64,000 nt of DNA from Escherichia coli. Lineage in GTDB: Bacteria > Pseudomonadota > Gammaproteobacteria > Enterobacterales > Enterobacteriaceae. The position numbers were made by a program, and so were the translations under genes. The notes below the pieces were generated by a model. That model was not told the DNA's origin and did not search any database. It saw only the letters and a program-made list of their open reading frames with translations. Positions 1 to 64,000 of this stretch are shown in pieces. The stretch lies in NCBI RefSeq assembly GCF_013315695.1, contig NZ_CP054355.1; one strand, given 5' to 3'. Positions within the stretch are counted from its first letter, which is position 1. Each line of letters starts with the position of its first letter.

Positions 1-7
1 AGGACCC

Positions 8-433
8 GTGCTGACGCGGGACATAGAACGGGTGCTGGAGCAAAGCGGGGAAGCCCCGGTCTACGGGCCAAACCTGCGCGCCTCCTGCCGTCGTCTGGAG
101 GATGCCGGCTGGCTGCGTACCCTGCGCGCTCCGAACCTGCAGCTGGCAGTGGAGCTGACGGACGCCGGCCGGGCCGTGGCACAGCCTCTGCTGCCCGCAG
201 GCGGCACTTCTGCCACTGATCTGGCGGTGGAGCTGAACGGCATAACGTATCAGGCCTGCCGTGGGGATTTTGTGGTGCGTCTCGACGGCAGCACCTGTCT
301 GCAGTTATGGAATAAAGAAGGCAGGGTGGTACGCCGGGAGGGCGATCCGCTGGAAGTGGCGCAGTGGCTGCAGGCCTGTCACGATGCAGGAATGGAGGTT
401 CGCGTACAGATAAATGAAAGTGCCGCTCCGTAA
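8..433 (+). CDS. hypothetical protein, 5'-partial (reading frame open to window start)
   Basis: ORF has no in-frame stop upstream of position 8; no recognisable motif. Confidence 0.3.
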   Translation: MLTRDIERVLEQSGEAPVYGPNLRASCRRLEDAGWLRTLRAPNLQLAVELTDAGRAVAQPLLPAGGTSATDLAVELNGITYQACRGDFVVRLDGSTCLQLWNKEGRVVRREGDPLEVAQWLQACHDAGMEVRVQINESAAP

Positions 434-452
434 GAACACGCCTGTGCACGGT

Positions 453-800
453 TTACACATCATCCCATGGTGGCAGCCGGTTAACTTTCCTGCGCCACCA
501 GTGGAAAGAGGCCATGAGCAGTCCGGACAAAAACCCCCCCGTGATACTTATAATAATGGCCTCACCTGCCACCATTCCTGACGGCCCCCAGTAGATAAAC
601 CACATTGCACATCCCCAGGAAATGCCCCATAAGCCCCCCGTCAGCACCGTGACCTGCCAGAACGGCATAAAGGGTAATGGCGGAAGCCGGATACCCAGCC
701 GCCAGAGAATACGCAGAAGAGGAGGGGCATAATTGCTCCGCCACATCTTTTTGCTGTCCATCAGGGCAATGGCCCGGGCTTTTTTCTGCTCAAAAGTCAC
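453..800 (-). CDS. small hydrophobic membrane protein, unknown function
   Basis: 115-aa ORF with Gly/Trp-rich hydrophobic segments typical of a 2-3 TM protein. Confidence 0.35.
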   Translation of the reverse strand: MTFEQKKARAIALMDSKKMWRSNYAPPLLRILWRLGIRLPPLPFMPFWQVTVLTGGLWGISWGCAMWFIYWGPSGMVAGEAIIISITGGFLSGLLMASFHWWRRKVNRLPPWDDV

Positions 801-928
801 AGGAGCACCTCCGTTCCATGATGTAAACGTGACACAGCTTATTGTTATTGATTATTATTATCATGCTGTGGTTATGTTGTCATGCATCAGTACACTGACA
901 AAAGTGCAAAAGAAAGGAAAACTGGCAG

Positions 929-1264
929 ATGAACAGAAAATATTATTTTAATAATATGTGGTGGGGATGGGTGACGGGGGGATATATGCTGTATATGTCA
1001 TGGGATTATGATTTTAAATACAGATTACTGTTCTGGTGTATTTCTCTCTGCGGAATGGTTTTGTATCCGGTTGCAAAATGGTATATTGAAGATACAGCTC
1101 TGAAATTTACCCGGCCTGATTTCTGGAACAGCGGTTTTTTTACTGATACACCTGGAAAAATGGGATTGCTTGCTGTTTATACGGGTACTGTTTTCATATT
1201 ATCTCTTCCGTTAAGTATGATATATATTCTTTCTGTTATTATAAAAAGGCTGTCTGTAAGATAG
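929..1264 (+). CDS. colicin Ia/Ib-type immunity protein (orphan; no colicin gene present)
   Basis: 111-aa hydrophobic protein (MNRKYYFNNMWWGW...IIKRLSVR) matching my recollection of the colicin Ia immunity protein; hairpin plus T-run immediately 3'. Confidence 0.5.
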   Translation: MNRKYYFNNMWWGWVTGGYMLYMSWDYDFKYRLLFWCISLCGMVLYPVAKWYIEDTALKFTRPDFWNSGFFTDTPGKMGLLAVYTGTVFILSLPLSMIYILSVIIKRLSVR

Positions 1265-2702
1265 ACAGCCTGTCTTATATTTTATTTAAATACCCCAGAA
1301 CTTATGCCACAAGAATTATCTAAAAGTTGCCGTTCTACTCCGTTAGTTTGTAGTTCTATCATAGTCTTATTAACTCGATCACGAGGTCTGTATGACGGGG
1401 AAGCTTGCGCTGTAAGATTATATGATAATGCACATATTGTAATGATAGTTGTTTTTATCTTTGTGTTTAATGTGAAAATTTTATAAAGCATATAATGTTC
1501 CCTATTTTTATTTTGTTTATAATTTATTGGTTGTATGTTAAATCTATCATAAGTCTAATGATTAAAATGGTTAGTGGTGTCAGGATTAGTGAAAATAAAG
1601 GATGTAATATGCTATTCTTTCTCTGTAAGTACTTGAGAATACTAAACCATAGTACAAGAATGATTATGTACATGTAGTGAGAATTGGAAAACATAGTTTC
1701 TTCCCGTGTTAATGAGAGTATGTGTTTTTATGTGGGGATATGTACACCCCATATAGATGTATTATGTTATATTTATAATATACCTCGGCAAAATAAAAGG
1801 ATTGTTATAGAAATAGGGAAGGCTATAAAAAAGCTTATATTAAGGTCTGTTTTCTTCTTAGAAAAATAATTCTTTGCTCTAATTATTATAGATGTAATCC
1901 CCCAAACAATAAAAAGAATGGAGCTGCTTGTAATTATTTGATATATCAAAATTGTTTTCCTCTATTTTTGTGTAGATAGATGTTAATGGCACTGGGTGCA
2001 TTTATTCGTAATTTCTTTTTCCATGCTGGGCCAGCAGGAGCATTTGAACAGAAACTTGATTAATCATGAAAACACATCACTTATCGAAGAAAAAAATATA
2101 AACTAACAGAATAACTATAGATGCAGGGAAAGCTAAGAATAAGCTTATAGCTGGGGCTGTTTTTTTGTTGAATTTCCAGTTTGTGACTCTGATTATTACA
2201 GCTATAGTCATCCAGACTATAATTAAAATAGAACTGCCATTGATAAAATCATATTTCAAAATAAATTCTCCTGTATTTGTCACTCAATCGGTGGTTTATG
2301 TGACTATATTCGCAAAAACTGGTCGCAGAAAAGTCCTGTTTTCAGCTTGGAAACCCGGTAATCAGAATAATGGATAGGGGAACAAAAATCTCTGTATAGA
2401 ACGCTCCATTGAGGGAGAGAAAACGTGTCATTTTGACCCGTTCGGTATTCAGAACACACAAAACCGATCGCGCATCGCTTTCGTGCATAGTTATGCAACG
2501 CGCTAAAAACGATTCTGACGCATTTTTCTGGTTCAGCCTGTGTTTCCTTGTCTTTTTGCGTTTTTTGCGTCAGAAAGCGACTGAGGGCGTTTTAAGGGGT
2601 ACGTACAACGGGAGTTATGGTAAATGGATCGGTTTTTCGGGAAGGATCGACAGGATTTGCCGTTGGGTGTAGTGTAAGCGACTGAAAAACAAACGCCCCT
2701 GA

Positions 2703-3401
2703 AATCATGTCCAGATCCGGCAGAACCAGCCTCATGCGCAGTTCTGGCTGGTTTTTGACGTTGATCGCGAGGGGGCAGCGATTGACTGGAGCGACCGGAA
2801 CGCTCCCGCGCCGAACATCACCGTAAAAAATCCTGTGAACGGTCATGCTCACCTGCTCTACGCGCTCAATATCGCCGTGAGAACCGCGCCGGACAGCTCG
2901 GTTAAGGCGCTGAAATACGCCGCTGCGATTGAACGTTCGCTGTGTGAGAAACTTTGTGCTGATGTGAACTACAGCGGACTGATTTGTAAAAATCCGTTCC
3001 ACCTGGAATGGCAGGTGATGGAGTGGCGAGAGGAAGCCTATACCCTCGATGAACTGGCTGATTATCTCGATTTGAGCGCCTCAGCGCGCCGTAGCATCGA
3101 TAAACATTACGGGATGGGGCGAAACTGCCACCTGTTCGAAATGACGCGCAAATGGGCTTACAGGGCGATTCGTCAGGGCTGGCCCGAATTCTCACAGTGG
3201 CTTGATGCCGTGATTCAGCGTGTCGAAATGTACAACGCATCGCTTCCCGTTCCGCTTTCACCGCCTGAATGTCGGGCTATTGGCAAGAGCATTGCGAAAT
3301 ACACGCACAGGAACTTCACGCCGGAAACTTTCGCACAGTATGTGGCTGATACGCACACATTAACGTACGTTTTCGTTCCATTGGCCCTCACCCCCCGATA
3401 A
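2703..3401 (+). pseudogene. ColE2-type plasmid Rep (primase-type initiator) remnant, lacking N-terminus and C-terminal DNA-binding region
   Basis: In-frame translation from the stop at 2700 gives ...FWLVFDVDREGAAIDWSDRNAPAPNITVKNP..NGHAHLLYAL..ICKNPFHLEWQ.., as remembered for ColE2 Rep; no ATG/GTG/TTG start before the GTG at 2835; protein ends early. Confidence 0.55.
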
Positions 3402-3637
3402 CGACCCAGGTAGCGCGCCGTATTCCCCCCGCCGGCCGTTTTCTTCGACATGTACATCAGGCGCGGAACTCATCGGGGCGCGGGAATGAAATCCCATTCA
3501 GACTCCGGATAGATTCAAGCAAGCCCACTTATCGTCAAAATCGGTGTTGCAAAAACGGGAGTGACCATAGATCCGTTTTCCAAGCGGACCCATAATATCG
3601 GCTGGTAAACATCACTCGCTAGTGCATTCTTTTTGTT

Positions 3638-3657
3638 GGTAATGATAATCATTTACA
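3638..3657. promoter_or_regulatory. Fur box upstream of cjrA
   Basis: ggtaatgataatcatttac closely matches the Fur consensus GATAATGATAATCATTATC. Confidence 0.6.
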
Positions 3658-3732
3658 TTCATTCTTTGATGTTTTATCATAATTAATGTTTTGTCAATAA
3701 ATATATGGAAACATATTGTTTCAGATGGGAAT

Positions 3733-4608
3733 ATGAGAAAGTTCATCCTTATTTCTATGATAACGTTAGCTAGTGTTAGTCTGGGAGCCTGCAGACAGAA
3801 TGTCACCATAAAGCAGGATGCGCCAGGGCAGAAAGCTTTCCTGACTGACGGGCAGATTTACGATTTGCACAGTGGCAAAATTATTTCTAGCAGCGAGCTT
3901 TTGGCGGATCTTGCTACCGCTCAACATCTTATTATTGGTGAAAAACACGATAATGCCGAGCATCATCAGATTGAGCTTTGGCTTATTCAAAATTTGCTCA
4001 TCCAGCGACCACAGGGGAGTGTGTTGCTTGAGATGTTGACGTCAGAGCAACAGCCCCGAGTTAACCAAGTTAAATGTTGGCTGAAAGATAATCCTGTGGT
4101 TCGAGATAGCCGTGTTCAGGAACTACTTAACTGGCAAAAAGGGTGGTCCTGGGAGATGTATGGCGACATCGTCATGCAGCTATTACGTGGGCCTTACCCG
4201 CTGCTCAATGCCAACATTGGCCGGGAGCAGATATTGGCACTGTACAAAAAAAACGAATTTCCTAAAGGAAAAAAATCCACTGCACCTGTGGTACAAGAAG
4301 CTCTGCGTGAAACCATCATATCTATGCATGAAGGCAACCTTGAAAGCCAGCAACTGACGTCAATGCTCTCTATTCAGCAGCAGCGGGATCGCTACATGGC
4401 CCGCCAGCTTCTGAGTGCCCCGGTACCGTCGTTGTTGATTGCAGGTGGTTATCACGCGTCAAAAAGCATGGGCGTACCGTTACACATGGAAGATCTTGCC
4501 ACCGGCACCCATCCAGTGGTGTTGATGCTTGCAGAAAAAGGAATGAACATCACAGTAGATCATGCTGACTACGTGTGGTTTGTAGCGCCAGATACAACAA
4601 AAAGGTAA
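3733..4608 (+). CDS. cjrA: ChaN-like haem/iron-binding lipoprotein (CjrA-like)
   Basis: Signal peptide with lipobox-like SLGAC; size and position 5' of a TonB homologue and a TonB-dependent receptor as in the cjrABC-senB cluster. Confidence 0.55.
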   Translation: MRKFILISMITLASVSLGACRQNVTIKQDAPGQKAFLTDGQIYDLHSGKIISSSELLADLATAQHLIIGEKHDNAEHHQIELWLIQNLLIQRPQGSVLLEMLTSEQQPRVNQVKCWLKDNPVVRDSRVQELLNWQKGWSWEMYGDIVMQLLRGPYPLLNANIGREQILALYKKNEFPKGKKSTAPVVQEALRETIISMHEGNLESQQLTSMLSIQQQRDRYMARQLLSAPVPSLLIAGGYHASKSMGVPLHMEDLATGTHPVVLMLAEKGMNITVDHADYVWFVAPDTTKR

Positions 4609-4615
4609 ACCATGG

Positions 4616-5392
4616 ATGATGAATATTCTCCACTTCTCACAGTCGGTAAAATGGAGCAGCTGGTTTATCTGTTCTCTACTGCTTCATGGACTGATTTTCC
4701 TTGCGTTTATCTGGCGTTTTTCCGAAGTTCAGCCCGCTATGTCTCCTGCACCGGCGATCATGCTGCAATGGGCAGAAATTATAGAGGCTCCTTCTTCTCC
4801 ACTTTCGCTTCCGGTGGGAATCGCTCAACAGGAGTCCGCAGTGACAGAAGAAAAGCAACAAACTGAGGACAGACAACAACGTCCTGTCACTGAAGACAGT
4901 GATGCAACCATTGAAATAACTAGGAAGAAAAAGTCATCCGATGGAGAAAAGAAAAAGACACGTCCACCTCGTAAGATAAAGGCTCAAACCAGCGACAGCA
5001 ACCCCACAGCCGTTTCCAGTAATGCTGCACCTCAGGCTCTGGTCGAATCGTCCCGTATTGCTGCGCCTTTTAACAGTGACTCAACAAAGCGAGATAATTC
5101 TGAGGCATCTTGGGAAAGCAGAGTAAAAGGCCACCTAAACCGTTATAAACGTTACCCTGGCGATGCCAGAAAACGTGCACGAACCGGCACAGCCGTCGTG
5201 ACTTTTACCGTAAACACGGAAGGCACTATTGTCAGTAGTTTCTTGGAAATCTCTTCAGGAACCTTTTCTCTTGACCGCGAAGCTATTGCTGTTTTAGAAC
5301 GCGCTCAACCACTTCCCAAACCACCGCCTGAAATATTGGAGGGAGGATTATTTAAAGTAAAAATGCCGATTACCTTTAAGTTGAAGGAGTAA
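4616..5392 (+). CDS. cjrB: TonB-family energy transducer (CjrB-like)
   Basis: N-terminal membrane anchor, charged linker, C-terminal TonB-like domain (..GTAVVTFTVNTEGTIV...PLPKPP); 258 aa. Confidence 0.65.
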   Translation: MMNILHFSQSVKWSSWFICSLLLHGLIFLAFIWRFSEVQPAMSPAPAIMLQWAEIIEAPSSPLSLPVGIAQQESAVTEEKQQTEDRQQRPVTEDSDATIEITRKKKSSDGEKKKTRPPRKIKAQTSDSNPTAVSSNAAPQALVESSRIAAPFNSDSTKRDNSEASWESRVKGHLNRYKRYPGDARKRARTGTAVVTFTVNTEGTIVSSFLEISSGTFSLDREAIAVLERAQPLPKPPPEILEGGLFKVKMPITFKLKE

Positions 5393-5560
5393 AGGGATAA
5401 TTGGCCGTTCAAGTTCATTTAACTGAAATTTAATTTTCATTTTTATGCTGAACATTTTATCAAACTTTTCCACTGTCAAAAAAATCAAAAAGACAGTAGA
5501 ACATAATTAATAAACAAATAGTTATACTTATCTTTATTAATATTATACCCAAGGAAATTT

Positions 5561-7822
5561 ATGAACGTTATAAAACTGGCTATCGGCTCAGGCATATTAT
5601 TGCTCAGCTGCGGTGCTTACTCACAATCCATCAGTGAAAAAACTAATTCCGACAAAAAAGGAGCGGCAGAATTCAGTCCGCTCAGCGTTTCTGTCGGGAA
5701 GACGACCAGTGAGCAGGAAGCTCTCGAGAAAACAGGCGCGACCAGTTCCCGGACAACGGACAAAAACCTGCAATCACTTGACGCAACAGTGCGTAGTATG
5801 CCTGGTACTTATACTCAAATAGATCCTGGTCAGGGAGCAATCAGTGTGAATATTCGAGGCATGAGCGGATTTGGTCGTGTAAACACTATGGTCGATGGTA
5901 TTACCCAGAGTTTTTACGGAACCTCTACCTCCGGAACAACGACGCATGGTTCAACTAACAATATGGCTGGCGTACTTATAGATCCTAACTTACTGGTAGC
6001 AGTTGATGTTACACGCGGTGACAGCAGTGGCTCTGAAGGGATCAACGCCCTTGCCGGTAGTGCAAATATGCGTACTATTGGCGTTGACGATGTAATATTT
6101 AACGGTAATACATATGGCCTTCGTTCACGTTTCTCTGTCGGTAGTAATGGGCTGGGACGCAGCGGAATGATCGCCCTTGGTGGAAAAAGCGACGCTTTTA
6201 CGGATACGGGAAGCATTGGCGTTATGGCTGCTGTGAGCGGCAGTTCTGTGTACTCTAATTTCTCAAATGGTTCTGGAATTAACAGCAAAGAGTTTGGTTA
6301 TGATAAATATATGAAGCAGAACCCCAAATCCCAACTGTATAAAATGGATATCAGACCAGACGAATTTAACAGCTTCGAACTTTCCGCTCGAACCTATGAA
6401 AATAAATTTACACGTCGTGATATAACCAGTGACGACTATTACATTAAATATCATTACACCCCTTTTTCTGAATTAATTGACTTTAACGTAACGGCCAGTA
6501 CCAGTCGCGGTAATCAAAAGTATCGTGATGGCTCGCTGTATACTTTCTACAAAACCTCAGCGCAAAATCGTTCTGACGCGCTGGATATCAACAATACCAG
6601 CCGGTTCACTGTCGCGGACAATGACCTGGAGTTTATGCTGGGCAGCAAACTGATGCGTACCCGCTATGACCGGACCATTCACTCAGCGGCGGGCGACCCG
6701 AAAGCGAATCAGGAATCGATCGAGAACAATCCGTTCGCACCCTCCGGCCAGCAGGATATTTCAGCGCTGTATACCGGGCTGAAGGTTACGCGCGGCATCT
6801 GGGAGGCAGATTTCAATCTCAACTACACACGTAACAGGATCACAGGGTACAAGCCCGCCTGCGATTCACGCGTTATCTGCGTGCCACAGGGTAGCTACGA
6901 TATTGACGATAAAGAGGGTGGCTTCAACCCTTCAGTTCAGCTTTCTGCTCAGGTAACACCATGGCTTCAGCCGTTCATTGGCTACAGCAAATCCATGCGC
7001 GCCCCGAACATCCAGGAGATGTTCTTCTCTAATTCAGGAGGCGCATCCATGAACCCATTCCTGAAGCCTGAACGTGCAGAAACCTGGCAGGCGGGTTTTA
7101 ACATTGATACCAGAGATTTACTGGTCGAACAGGATGCCCTGCGCTTTAAGGCTCTGGCGTACCGCAGCAGGATCCAGAACTACATCTACAGCGAGTCTTA
7201 TCTGGTTTGTTCTGGAGGTCGTAAATGCAGTCTGCCTGAGGTGATTGGCAATGGCTGGGAGGGCATTAGCGATGAATACAGCGACAATATGTACATCTAC
7301 GTTAACTCGGCAAGCGACGTTATCGCAAAGGGCTTCGAACTGGAGATGGATTATGATGCAGGTTTTGCTTTTGGCCGACTCTCTTTCAGCCAGCAGCAAA
7401 CAGACCAGCCAACCTCCATCGCCAGCACCCACTTTGGCGCAGGGGATATAACCGAACTGCCCAGAAAATACATGACGCTGGATACTGGTGTTCGCTTCTT
7501 CGATAACGCGTTGACCCTGGGCACTATCATAAAATACACAGGCAAGGCTCGTCGCCTGTCGCCTGATTTTGAGCAGGACGAACATACCGGCGCAATAATC
7601 AAACAGGATTTGCCGCAGATCCCAACGATTATCGATCTCTATGGTACTTACGAGTACAACCGCAACCTGACACTGAAACTTTCGGTACAAAACCTGATGA
7701 ACAGAGATTATTCGGAGGCGCTGAATAAGCTCAACATGATGCCAGGTCTTGGTGACGAGACCCACCCAGCCAATTCCGCGCGTGGCAGAACATGGATATT
7801 TGGCGGGGACATTCGTTTCTGA
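5561..7822 (+). CDS. cjrC: TonB-dependent outer-membrane receptor (CjrC-like)
   Basis: 753 aa, signal peptide, C-terminal ...GGDIRF ending in aromatic residue typical of TonB-dependent receptors. Confidence 0.7.
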   Translation: MNVIKLAIGSGILLLSCGAYSQSISEKTNSDKKGAAEFSPLSVSVGKTTSEQEALEKTGATSSRTTDKNLQSLDATVRSMPGTYTQIDPGQGAISVNIRGMSGFGRVNTMVDGITQSFYGTSTSGTTTHGSTNNMAGVLIDPNLLVAVDVTRGDSSGSEGINALAGSANMRTIGVDDVIFNGNTYGLRSRFSVGSNGLGRSGMIALGGKSDAFTDTGSIGVMAAVSGSSVYSNFSNGSGINSKEFGYDKYMKQNPKSQLYKMDIRPDEFNSFELSARTYENKFTRRDITSDDYYIKYHYTPFSELIDFNVTASTSRGNQKYRDGSLYTFYKTSAQNRSDALDINNTSRFTVADNDLEFMLGSKLMRTRYDRTIHSAAGDPKANQESIENNPFAPSGQQDISALYTGLKVTRGIWEADFNLNYTRNRITGYKPACDSRVICVPQGSYDIDDKEGGFNPSVQLSAQVTPWLQPFIGYSKSMRAPNIQEMFFSNSGGASMNPFLKPERAETWQAGFNIDTRDLLVEQDALRFKALAYRSRIQNYIYSESYLVCSGGRKCSLPEVIGNGWEGISDEYSDNMYIYVNSASDVIAKGFELEMDYDAGFAFGRLSFSQQQTDQPTSIASTHFGAGDITELPRKYMTLDTGVRFFDNALTLGTIIKYTGKARRLSPDFEQDEHTGAIIKQDLPQIPTIIDLYGTYEYNRNLTLKLSVQNLMNRDYSEALNKLNMMPGLGDETHPANSARGRTWIFGGDIRF

Positions 7823-7890
7823 TGACAATTTCCGCTAGGTTCAGACAATACGTTTTCTCTCTTATGTCAATTTTATTGCAGGAACGAAAA

Positions 7891-9066
7891 ATGAATATTT
7901 TCACTTTATCCAAAGCACCGCTATACCTGTTAATTTCACTATTTTTACCCACGATGGCCATGGCTATCGATCCACCTGAACGCGAACTTTCGCGATTTGC
8001 CCTGAAAACGAATTACCTTCAGTCCCCTGATGAAGGCGTCTATGAACTGGCGTTTGATAATGCCAGTAAAAAGGTGTTTGCAGCAGTCACCGATCGTGTA
8101 AATCGTGAAGCCAATAAAGGCTATCTGTATTCGTTTAATTCAGATTCGCTGAAAGTCGAAAATAAATACACGATGCCATACCGGGCATTTTCGCTGGCGA
8201 TAAATCAGGATAAACATCAGCTCTATATCGGACACACCCAGTCAGCGTCCCTGCGTATCAGTATGTTTGACACCCCAACCGGCAAACTGGTAAGAACCAG
8301 CGACAGGTTAAGTTTTAAAGCGGCAAACGCTGCAGATTCGCGTTTTGAGCATTTTCGCCATATGGTTTACAGCCAGGATTCCGATACCCTGTTTGTGAGT
8401 TATAGCAATATGCTGAAAACGGCCGAGGGCATGAAGCCTCTGCATAAGCTGTTAATGCTCGACGGGACGACGCTTGCCTTAAAAGGCGAGGTTAAGGATG
8501 CTTACAAAGGTACAGCGTATGGTCTGACGATGGATGAAAAAACACAGAAAATCTACGTTGGCGGAAGAGATTACATCAACGAAATTGATGCGAAAAATCA
8601 GACGCTGCTGCGTACCATCCCGTTGAAAGATCCGAGACCACAAATCACAAGTGTGCAGAATCTGGCGGTGGACTCCGCTTCTGACCGTGCCTTTGTGGTG
8701 GTATTCGACCATGACGATCGTTCCGGTACAAAAGATGGACTCTATATTTTTGACTTACGCGACGGTAAACAGCTTGGCTATGTGCACACAGGAGCCGGAG
8801 CTAACGCGGTGAAATACAATCCGAAATATAACGAACTGTATGTCACCAACTTCACTAGCGGCACCATCAGCGTAGTGGATGCCACCAAATACAGCATCAC
8901 CCGTGAATTTAACATGCCGGTCTACCCAAACCAGATGGTGTTGTCGGACGATATGGATACCCTTTACATTGGCATCAAAGAAGGCTTTAACCGCGATTGG
9001 GATCCTGATGTGTTTGTGGAAGGAGCTAAAGAACGTATTCTGAGCATTGATTTGAAAAAGTCGTGA
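7891..9066 (+). CDS. senB: SenB/TieB-like secreted protein with YVTN-type beta-propeller repeats
   Basis: About 391 aa from MNIFTLSK with signal peptide; repeated KIYVGG / ELYVTNFTSG / LYIGI motifs; position after cjrC as in cjrABC-senB. Confidence 0.5.
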   Translation: MNIFTLSKAPLYLLISLFLPTMAMAIDPPERELSRFALKTNYLQSPDEGVYELAFDNASKKVFAAVTDRVNREANKGYLYSFNSDSLKVENKYTMPYRAFSLAINQDKHQLYIGHTQSASLRISMFDTPTGKLVRTSDRLSFKAANAADSRFEHFRHMVYSQDSDTLFVSYSNMLKTAEGMKPLHKLLMLDGTTLALKGEVKDAYKGTAYGLTMDEKTQKIYVGGRDYINEIDAKNQTLLRTIPLKDPRPQITSVQNLAVDSASDRAFVVVFDHDDRSGTKDGLYIFDLRDGKQLGYVHTGAGANAVKYNPKYNELYVTNFTSGTISVVDATKYSITREFNMPVYPNQMVLSDDMDTLYIGIKEGFNRDWDPDVFVEGAKERILSIDLKKS

Positions 9067-22062: not shown

Positions 22063-22824
22063 TCAAAGATTAAGGTTATTTCGATCGCTGGCAAGACGCT
22101 GTAAGAATTGACCATATCCCTGCGGCCCCATCCAGTAGTTAATACTTTTCTCAACGCCGGTTGATGTCAACGTCGCACCGGAAATACCGTCAACGGTATA
22201 TTCATCGGCATGTTCAGGTTTATCCTGTACTATTTTCAATGCAGGATGTCCGCTGTTATCTAATAATCGTTTCCCTGGCCACTGTTTGCGCCAGTTGGCG
22301 TCTTCCACCCTAGCCCCCAGAAACGGCGTTTCCCGTTGCTGATAATAATACAGATTTCTCACCGTACGACCGTCCAGCCCCAGAGCAAGAAACGCATGCA
22401 TCATGGATTTCGCGCCCTTACCGGTAACTGGAATGATAACCTGCTGAATTTCATTATTTTTATCTTTCACAAAGAACACATCCGCCACCGTACAGCGCTG
22501 ACGAACCTGCGCTGGGTCGCGTTCAGGGGCAAGTTTTTCACACTTCTGCCGCGCGGTGTCCGCGCTGCTGCCAGCCACCAGTTCGCCGGAATCTAAATTA
22601 ACATGGCGTTGAATAATATAACGATGATAGAGCGTTTCGACTGATTTTTTATCCTGGGTCTCTGATTTCATCAGGCCCGCAGCGTGTAAAATTGCCGCCT
22701 GTTTTTCCTCCTCTGTCGGCTCCGTCATTTCTCCCTGGAACAGCATAAACCATGCCGCCGCCGCAACAAAAATAAGGACACAAAGCACCATCATTGATGC
22801 AACAATAATTTTACCCTTGCGCAT
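22063..22824 (-). CDS. orphan NqrC/RnfG-type FMN-binding domain protein, membrane-anchored
   Basis: N-terminal TM; C-terminal ..VIIPVTGKG..SMMHAFLALGLDG..YYQQRETP..DGISGATLTSTGV.. as in NqrC flavinylation region; no other nqr genes nearby. Confidence 0.6.
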   Translation of the reverse strand: MRKGKIIVASMMVLCVLIFVAAAAWFMLFQGEMTEPTEEEKQAAILHAAGLMKSETQDKKSVETLYHRYIIQRHVNLDSGELVAGSSADTARQKCEKLAPERDPAQVRQRCTVADVFFVKDKNNEIQQVIIPVTGKGAKSMMHAFLALGLDGRTVRNLYYYQQRETPFLGARVEDANWRKQWPGKRLLDNSGHPALKIVQDKPEHADEYTVDGISGATLTSTGVEKSINYWMGPQGYGQFLQRLASDRNNLNL

Positions 22825-30350: not shown

Positions 30351-31208
30351 TCAGGGGGAAGCTGTAGCCAGCCGGCTGTAATTGCGGTTACGTGACAGAA
30401 TCATGCGCTCCTTCACACGACGCTCCACTTCGCGTTTTACCGTCTCACCATTAGCAGTAAAGCGCCCTTCCGAGATTTCACGCGTCAGCTGCCGTTTCAC
30501 CAGGGTGACGATATCCTGACGTTCCCTGTTCGCATCACGACGCGCACGGGCACGTTTTATTCCACGGGACTTAAGCTCTGTCTGGTAACTGCGGAAACGC
30601 TCACGCACAAAACGCCAGGCTTTCGCTATTAGTTCATCCATACCCAGGGTATCCAGCCCCTGTTTTTTGCGCTGTCTGTTTTCCCATTCAACACGACTGC
30701 GGCGCGCAGCTGCCACTGCATCCTCAGACACATCAAGGGCAGCAAACAGAGCCGGTGTGAACGTGATATCGGTCGGAATGTAGCACCCGATAAGCGGGTC
30801 ATATTCCGTCTGGTAGGTAATCAACCCCAGCTCTGACAGGAACGTCAGGGCACGGGTGGCACGAGTGATGGAGAGTTTTCCTGCACCGGACTCTGTCGCC
30901 AGTCCGCACTCAATGGCCAGCGTGGTGATGGAGCACTGGACGCGGTTGGCCAGCGGGTCATAGTGGAAACACAGCCCCTGCAGGAGCGCATCAATAGCCC
31001 GTCGACGCAGCACCGGTGGCATGCGTCGACGCAGACCACGCGAACGGGCATGCGCCACATGAATGGCGAAATCAAAACGGGAGGTGAAGCCCACCGCCTT
31101 TTCCATCAGTTTTTCGCAGAACTTCAGCGTTCCGGCACCTTTACGGGGTGTAAACACCGGATTCGGGTTCTTTACCTGGCGGTAATACGTTTGGTGAAGA
31201 TCAGTCAC
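30351..31208 (-). CDS. repA1: IncFII replication initiator RepA1
   Basis: 285 aa from a GTG start, [19 protein letters not shown]...RLATASP, as remembered for R100/R1 RepA1. Confidence 0.85.
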
Positions 31209-31295
31209 ACCATCCTGCACTTATGTTGCACAGAAGGAGTGAGCACAGAAAGAAGTCTTGAACTTTTCCGGGCATATAACTATACTCCCCGCATA

Positions 31296-62826: not shown

Positions 62827-64000
62827 GGCTTGATATAAACCTGGCAGGCAAGGGATCTGGTTAACTCCTTTCCTTCAATAAAGTGTTTGAAGATCCAGAG
62901 ATACGTATCCACAAGCTCCAGCCCTGTACTCTGTGTCCCCGACTGGAAGACCTGCGGTTCAGCTGGTATTTCCATTACATCCATGACCGGTGTCTGCGCA
63001 GCAGTGCCTGTCATCAGGATCCTGTCACTCTTTCGACCGACAGATTATGGCATACAGTTGGGCTCGTAAGATCCAGAGTCAATAACTGACAGGGTTTATT
63101 CTGTCATCCTCCGGCAGCAAAGGCATATACGATATTCACTTATTTTGTCGGTCCAACGGCTTTTTACAGTAGCTCGTTTTGCCCAACTGATGCTACAGCT
63201 CTTTGGTTTGCTTCATCACGGATATCAGCTCCGACACAGGCACAGCTGACTGGTTGCAACGTCTGCACTTCTCTGGACCTGAAACGTCAATTATCAGGAT
63301 TCTGACGATTAGTCTTAAGACTGTCGGTAAATTAAGTGATGCCAGTTGTCAGGATATTCATGGAGCCAGTCTGCATGCGCCTCTGGCGTTGAGACAAACA
63401 TATGAAGTGTATTTCGGATATGACTGTACGCTCAGGAAGTACGGCAGATTCCGTCAAAAATTACCTGTAAAGACAGACTTCAGAAAAAACAGTGCTCGCC
63501 GCAGACCGGTGACCGGGCGAAGCCCGCGAACCGGCGAGGAAGCGCAATATATCTGTAGTTACAGTGAGCAGGTACGCCCTGAAGCCTTCATAATCGGTAG
63601 TGTATGTTGTTTTTCCGGAATGATTTATCCACATATCCAGAGGCCCGATCCAGTAAACAGATCCATGAATGATCAACAAAGGATCCATTAAAGATCCCCA
63701 TATCGCTGCAAACCTTGTCACTCATGGGCCGGGACCACGTTCACATAAGCTGTGGCATGTTATGGATAAACTGTAACAGGTTCATGATAAGCTGTATTCA
63801 GTAATGCATATACTGAAGTAAGTTAATGACATAAACTATGGTCAGTACGCCAGACTCAGTTGTTAAATACAGACTGCAGGTTTTTCTTCAGTCAGTTGAC
63901 GGGGTTCTGACACACGATTTTCTGTTTATTCTTTTACTGTCCACAGGCAGGAGGCTTTCTGGAAAACGAAAATTCAGACATCAAAAAACTGTTCGGCGAG

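Follow-up and report, generated by a model that had tools for sequence, protein, structure and literature searches.

Replicons of the ColE2 type are the closest described systems to the locus analyzed here. A working ColE2 replicon needs the initiator Rep, a 32-bp origin 3' of rep, and an upstream RNAI (PMC6856555, PMC5304414, PMC5862659). ColE2 Rep consists of a primase of the AEP/PrimPol clade, a PriCT-1 domain, and a helix-turn-helix, and these domains bind and unwind the origin (PMC5862659), which directly follows rep, and the antisense RNAI is directed against the 5' untranslated region and controls Rep translation (PMC6856555). The incompatibility determinants of ColE2 are two, the control region and the origin (PMC5304414), and the combination of PF03090 with PF08708 is the hallmark of ColE2-like initiators, which form the PlasmidFinder class Col156 (PMC6856555).

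A 64-kb stretch of Escherichia coli DNA (hereafter the window) contains at 2372-3358 what is very probably a dead replicon fragment of a small ColE2-type plasmid (Col156 in PlasmidFinder; Col156 or rep_cluster_2131 in MOB-suite), lying beside cjrABC-senB on a pUTI89-like IncF plasmid. RepFIC of plasmid F is an inactivated secondary replicon interrupted by Tn1000, and the likeness between the two is that of a mosaic IncF plasmid carrying the wreck of an extra replicon disabled by a transposon-associated rearrangement. However, RepFIC is an IncF-type (RepA1/antisense) replicon, whereas the window remnant belongs to the primase-type ColE2 replicons and comes from a small plasmid, and its transposon is gone except for one inverted repeat. 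ColE2-P9, ColE9-J, and their relatives (Col156/rep_cluster_2131; MOBQ4(2) plasmids, PMC6856555) carry the same gene at 95–98% DNA identity and share with the remnant the leader and, as far as it reaches, the PF03090 and PF08708 architecture. In contrast to those replicons, the remnant is without the ribosome-binding region, the ATG, codons 1-41/42 and 255-308, and the 32-bp origin, and probably without RNAI, and it resides on a plasmid of >100 kb instead of a mobilizable plasmid of 4–8 kb. The features of the locus are collected in the table.

Features of the ColE2-type remnant and its borders, in window positions
Feature	Position	Strand	Remarks
Retained rep control/leader region	2372..2722	+	~350 of ~410 nt upstream of ATG remain; homology to pEM22-18-53_4 and pIGJC156
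Surviving half of minus-strand hairpin (U-run and 3' arm), putative RNAI end	2684..2722	-	From nine-plasmid alignment
Open frame	2703..3401	+	Stop-to-stop, 232 codons
Deletion junction ATCCGGCA	2715..2722	.	Merged copy of imperfect 8-bp direct repeats ATCCGGCA / ATCCAGCA
rep codons 43-254 of 308	2723..3358	+	Most of primase (AEP/Replicase) domain and PriCT-1 region
First possible start, GTG	2835..2837	+	Rep V80 by alignment
Solo Tn3-family inverted repeat, closest to ISEc63-like elements	3360..3397	-	Outer GGGG end at 3397; inner end abuts rep
Transposase-gene 5' fragment of an insertion sequence, 60 bp	3398..3457	-	Matches 'transposase, incomplete' in NZ_CP025841.1

The initial annotation, made from the sequence without database searches, had taken the frame for the fossil of a small-plasmid replicon absorbed into an IncF plasmid, and its view of the host agrees with the gene content. 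The window is colinear at 94–99.9% with the pUTI89-like plasmid NZ_OZ038880.1, which carries IncFII repA/tap/copB, finO, traX, traI, and traD, and ORF 30351-31220 of the window encodes an IncFII RepA (TIGR03474 incFII_RepA, 579 bits against a cut-off of 446.9 bits). By this RepA and the colinearity with a tra-bearing plasmid, the host replicon is an IncF, pUTI89-like plasmid, and replication of the host would rest on its IncF replicons. Directly to the right of the remnant lie cjrA, cjrB, cjrC, and senB. The only consensus sigma-70-like promoter in 2300-3700, TTTACA-17-TATCAT at 3652-3680, lies immediately before cjrA and probably serves cjrABC, with no connection to the rep remnant.

At the far left, window 1-1305 is a colicin Ia immunity region, in which a 111-aa immunity gene (929-1264) matches the Pfam family Microcin/colicin E1 immunity. 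The homology to ColIa plasmids ends at about 1305, at the point of continuation into the colicin Ia gene, which is itself truncated away. The following segment, 1306-2371, has a GC content of 28–34% and is found only in pUTI89-like plasmids; it was dismissed as a part of the absorbed small plasmid since no small plasmid has it. Two paralogous small hydrophobic ORFs lie on the minus strand of this segment (2077-2283 and 1773-1949; 54% identity, E 3e-14). Neither matched a Pfam or NCBIfam family, and they may be immunity-like membrane peptides.

The frame follows a TGA at 2700-2702 and stays open from 2703 to a TAA at 3399-3401. According to the ORF listing, the earliest in-frame ATG, GTG, or TTG is the GTG at 2835, which confirms the earlier observation that no start codon lies between the upstream stop and this position, and no Shine-Dalgarno-like sequence was found ahead of it. 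The 232-codon translation matches PF03090 Replicase (E 3.3e-40, 137.6 bits) over profile positions 15-130 of 130, only the first ~14 positions of the profile being absent from the match. After the primase domain, frame residues 139-201 match PF08708 PriCT_1 with 22.7 bits (cut-off 21.1 bits). The remnant includes WLVFDVD, a candidate AEP motif I by the definition of PMC5862659, which corresponds to Rep residues 50-56. No Pfam family was found in the antisense ORFs across the remnant (2592-3002, 2902-3261, and 3215-3457) or in the upstream ORF 2409-2672.

The intact reference for all comparisons was pEM22-18-53_4 (NZ_CP063463.1, locus L002), a 6.7-kb ColE9-type colicin E9 plasmid whose rep has 308 codons (L002 3071-3997). 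Window 2715-3358 aligns ungapped to L002 3188-3831 within this rep at 98.4% nucleotide identity, and the remnant differs from the intact 308-aa Rep at four amino acids in the protein alignment. Against the rep of pIGJC156 the nucleotide identity is 94.8%; pIGJC156, typed as Col156 by MOB-suite, is presumably the PlasmidFinder Col156 reference. Judged by these alignments, the similarity to ColE2-type Rep is far beyond chance, and the proposed identity as a ColE2-type Rep with a primase-type core is borne out both by Pfam and by small Col156/ColE2-type plasmids, whose rep shares 98% DNA identity with the remnant. Within the 633-nt rep body there are no internal stops or frameshifts, so that, judged by the sequence, a truncated product is possible. 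The scars that had been proposed for inspection are accordingly not frameshifts inside the frame, and the lesions consist of a 185-bp deletion at the 5' end and a truncation at the 3' end, both of which could be mapped base by base in support of a small-plasmid fossil in an IncF plasmid.

The DNA derived from ColE2 spans 2372-3358 and extends well upstream of the frame. Window 2372-2722 corresponds to the rep upstream region of pEM22-18-53_4 (L002 2659-3010) at 90.3% identity, and the upstream region also matches pIGJC156 674-966 at 93.5% identity. Between the two matching blocks, 185 bp of the intact plasmid (L002 3008-3192) are absent: the ATG and Rep codons 1-41/42, together with 63 bp of leader in which the ribosome-binding region lies. 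This is why the frame has no start codon. The two BLAST HSPs of the window against L002 overlap on ATCCGGCA, and in intact plasmids this octamer and its imperfect copy ATCCAGCA stand 185 bp apart. The lesion is therefore a deletion between short, imperfect direct repeats.

The same deletion bears on RNAI. The minus strand of the leader was aligned from nine ColE2-type plasmids (L002 2951-3110 and eight other small plasmids), and a minus-strand hairpin is kept in them 31-95 nt upstream of the rep ATG, followed by TTTGTTTTT. The upper stem and loop of the hairpin are the most variable part of the leader, and the ColE9-type hairpin displays compensatory changes (TTCGTG/CACGAA vs TCATGT/ACATGA). 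The rep ATG is overlapped by a conserved TTGAAG-16-TACGAT, from which an RNA of the minus strand ending at the hairpin would start; as a candidate RNAI promoter it scores 8/12 against the consensus, under the scan threshold. Together, the conserved hairpin, the U-run, and TTGAAG-16-TACGAT probably mark the RNAI gene of the ColE2 family. RNAI is about 115 nt long, and an RNA started at the best promoter would measure ~80 nt, so the agreement is only loose. In the window and in two intact plasmids, scanning for consensus promoters and terminators gave nothing useful for RNAI, and an Rfam scan of window 1800-3800 with E up to 1 returned no match, which means that no curated model of ColE2 RNAI applies here. 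The minus strand of 2490-2640 was rejected as a candidate RNAI on its folding z-score of -0.5. In the window, the deletion opens in the hairpin loop, and the other arm and TTGAAG-16-TACGAT are gone, from which we infer that the RNAI promoter, most of RNAI, and half its terminal hairpin went with the 185 bp. With the hairpin arm, the RNA body, and the candidate promoter deleted, the RNAI control element, IncA, is probably dead too. The rep promoter region is retained in the remnant and could still drive transcription.

At the other end, rep homology stops at the second base of codon 254 of 308 (window 3358). One base further begins sequence that matches, over 36-37 nt, a terminal inverted repeat of the Tn3 family; the alignment partner was the end of a tnpA pseudogene of this family in NZ_CP145680.1, and a 97% relative carries the annotation 'Tn3-like element ISEc63 family transposase'. 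With 38 bp and the pattern GGGG...ACGTTAAG, the repeat has the form of Tn3-family terminal inverted repeats, and from it, not from rep, come the last 14 codons of the frame (LTYVFVPLALTPR) and the stop. No tnpA, res site with resolvase, or second inverted repeat is present, and the inner side of the repeat is rep; on sequence grounds, the Tn3-family element at this junction is a relic and not a transposon. The fragment at 3398-3457 is further mobile-element debris between the remnant and cjrA.

A simple insertion of a transposon into rep was discarded as a model of this junction, since the inner, not the outer, end of the inverted repeat abuts rep within 1 bp. The outer end (GGGG, 3397) faces cjrA, and an insertion into rep predicts the opposite orientation. 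As read from its layout, the junction requires a deletion with one endpoint at the repeat's inner edge, or else something more complex, and no donor structure accounting for the inner-edge junction was found. With rep broken off in codon 254 and fused to the inner edge of this solo Tn3-family inverted repeat, the helix-turn-helix and the origin are gone.

Alignment to ColE2-P9 Rep defines how much of the initiator is left. Residues 174-301 of the intact relative are covered in the alignment by PDB 3VW4, the crystallized fragment of ColE2-P9 Rep that binds DNA, and the remnant ends at residue 254, keeping the PriCT-1 half of this fragment and losing the helix-turn-helix half. The initial annotation, in which the frame ended before the DNA-binding region, thus needs correction, because the frame stops inside that region. 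The loss of a C-terminal domain, which it also reported, stands with respect to the helix-turn-helix, removed by the cut at codon 254/308, and does not extend to the PriCT-1 part of the DNA-binding fragment, which is retained. A functional ColE2-type replicon requires a complete Rep ORF with a start and the N-terminal 41-42 residues, the C-terminal helix-turn-helix part at residues 255-308, and the 32-bp origin immediately 3' of rep. All of these are absent from the remnant, and the Tn3-family inverted repeat stands where the origin would be. No ColE2-type origin above chance was found after the rep break or anywhere in the 64-kb window. With lesions at both ends, the remnant is predicted to be unable to initiate replication, and it is probably without either ColE2 incompatibility function.

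Two sequences elsewhere in the window resemble parts of ColE2-type plasmids. At 22251-22266, 19 kb from the remnant and within a coding gene, TATTAGATAACAGCGG agrees with the core of the ColE2 origin in 15/16 positions; as a ColE2 origin it was rejected, the match being at chance level by shuffles and E-values. In small ColE2-type plasmids, a sequence ~100 bp past the 3' end of rep has ~77% similarity to window 63491-63547, which contains GCGAGGAAGCG. This part of the window resembles a single-strand initiation (primosome assembly) site of the phiX174 type that F-like and ColE2 plasmids have in common, and it has no relation to the rep remnant.

The locus is not confined to the window. The 1.4-kb region is fully covered at 98.9–99.1% identity in the top-ranked pUTI89-like plasmids, pUTI89 included, and 483 PLSDB records and 756 RefSeq E. 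coli records (689 genomes) have at least 80% coverage of the respective queries. Intact counterparts of the lost parts were also counted: the rep 3' end with the origin of the remnant's type occurs in 317 PLSDB plasmids, 0 of them conjugative, and the deleted 185-bp 5' segment in 556 PLSDB plasmids, of which nine are conjugative. That the gene is in fact intact, its start and C-terminus lost only through faults of sequencing or assembly, has next to no probability, since neither a 185-bp deletion nor a junction with transposon DNA is a single-base error, and the same structure recurs in those 483 PLSDB and 756 RefSeq E. coli records (at least 80% coverage), from many laboratories and including pUTI89. 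The recovery of an intact frame after sequence correction, which had been named as an outcome that would overturn the initial annotation, is not to be expected: the same lesions stand in hundreds of independent complete assemblies, and no correction would restore the frame.

Public annotation already recognizes a part of this. In RefSeq, PGAP lists the equivalent of 2715-3401 as a pseudogene, 'replication initiation protein; incomplete; missing N-terminus' (NZ_OZ547118.1 and NZ_OZ038880.1), and these pseudogenes of pUTI89-like plasmids (AC9VVF_RS26770 and ABGU75_RS24935) are the same locus as the window remnant. The annotation gives the missing N-terminus and is silent on the 3' truncation and the transposon-derived tail.

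The wide spread of the locus invites the question of whether the remnant is kept for a function, either in incompatibility or exclusion against ColE2-type plasmids (through RNAI or titration) or as a truncated primase-domain protein. Besides its prevalence, ~350 nt of the control region survive, the ColE2 control region carries an incompatibility determinant (PMC5304414), and the frame is free of stops. However, the rep body is 100% identical between the window and three other copies that are without a 19-bp deletion described below (NZ_OZ547118.1, NZ_OZ038880.1, and pUTI89), so the lack of stop codons among pUTI89-like copies reflects the remnant's youth and says nothing about selection. The deletion from the hairpin loop rightward removes the only conserved promoter-like element for a minus-strand RNA, and the origin, the second incompatibility determinant, is absent. 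A product starting at GTG 2835 (Rep V80) would be without the candidate AEP motif I and without the helix-turn-helix. Moreover, a sub-lineage comprising NZ_CP115391.1 (L015 5579-5619) and CP088688.1 (L017) has an extra 19-bp frameshifting deletion inside the frame, at about window 3101-3119, and these copies are otherwise identical to the rep remnant of the window. From this sub-lineage, decay of the remnant is seen to continue. The frameshift in otherwise identical copies leaves hitch-hiking with cjrABC-senB on a successful plasmid as the explanation of the prevalence, and retention for function is judged very unlikely.

Copies in other surroundings bear on how the dead fragment came to its place. 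NZ_LR890406.1 shares only window 2381-8000, in which the remnant, with identical deletion and inverted-repeat junction, is followed by cjrABC and senB, and its left flank is wholly different from that of the window. It also keeps ~700 bp of extra DNA homologous to pIGJC156-type small plasmids (L016 4191-4880), and this segment adjoins an unrelated oxidoreductase/ArsR region. From the shared remnant-cjrABC-senB block and the differing left side it follows that the remnant travels with cjrABC-senB and that the edge at 2372 is a later breakpoint. Judged by this distribution, the remnant is linked to the cjrABC-senB module and not to the IncF backbone as such, and given this linkage the capture may predate the present plasmid lineage.

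There may have been no fusion of an IncF plasmid with a small plasmid at all: the rep fragment may have been captured earlier on another replicon, beside cjrABC-senB or in a Tn3-family element, and have come with the module. This course of events is a tentative though real possibility. It accords with the shared 2381-8000 block, the other left flank, and the ~700 bp more small-plasmid DNA in NZ_LR890406.1, with the left edge at 2372 abutting an unrelated segment of 28–34% GC, and with a right edge of transposon debris. Nevertheless, all copies examined are on IncF-type plasmids, so that the capture could equally have taken place in an IncF ancestor, and a donor structure with a complete transposon was not found. 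On either history, the reading of 2372-3358 as a dead ColE2-type replicon fragment is the same.

One further copy has an intact 5' end. NZ_CP141101.1, a 152-kb IncF plasmid of E. coli KE40, shares with the window the flanks (ColIa immunity and cjrABC) and the inverted-repeat junction, and its copy (L007 4651-5851, equivalent to window 2372-3401) differs in having the 185-bp segment, the ATG, and a 267-aa ORF; MOB-suite types it as Col156. Over the equivalent of window 2393-3029, its SNPs are mostly pIGJC156-like with some unique, in contrast to the ColE9-like window; beginning at 3049 and up to the junction, both have the same ColE9-like sequence except at five isolated sites. The simplest reading, suggested by the SNP pattern, is that a co-resident small plasmid repaired a patch of this copy through gene conversion; alternatively, the copy may be an ancestral hybrid. 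Both NZ_CP141101.1 and NZ_LR890406.1 are IncF copies with patches of small-plasmid-type SNPs, and on the repair reading the former has regained a presumed RNAI along with the 185-bp segment and the ATG. That the remnant remains active in a different sense, as ~1 kb of portable homology recombining with co-resident Col156/ColE2-type small plasmids, is a doubtful proposition. If true, such exchange could make transient cointegrates through which small colicin or cryptic plasmids would be conducted by the IncF plasmid, and cognate small plasmids could suffer interference from 'repaired' copies that express RNAI and a Rep without its helix-turn-helix.

The feature is thus already known and ordinary, an annotated pseudogene of a well-studied replicon family; its scientific weight is small, and its main practical weight lies in replicon typing. 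MOB-suite types pUTI89 as IncFIA, IncFIB, and rep_cluster_2131, and intact small ColE2-type plasmids are also typed as rep_cluster_2131. The MOB-suite calls on pUTI89-like plasmids (rep_cluster_2131, and Col156 for the repaired copy) fit the dead fragment described here. In the literature, Col156 has been listed as a replicon of pUTI89-like plasmids (PMC7272548), and matches to Col156 have been taken to show small Col plasmids of their own (PMC8803956). Where the match is this dead remnant, either reading can mislead. Beyond offering co-resident small plasmids ~1 kb of homology and giving a false positive in replicon typing, the remnant would have no effect. The series of lesions (intact 5' end, 185-bp deletion, extra 19-bp deletion, and differing left flanks) may provide lineage markers for cjrABC-senB plasmids, and the locus is a textbook-style case of mosaic IncF plasmids with wrecks of other replicons.
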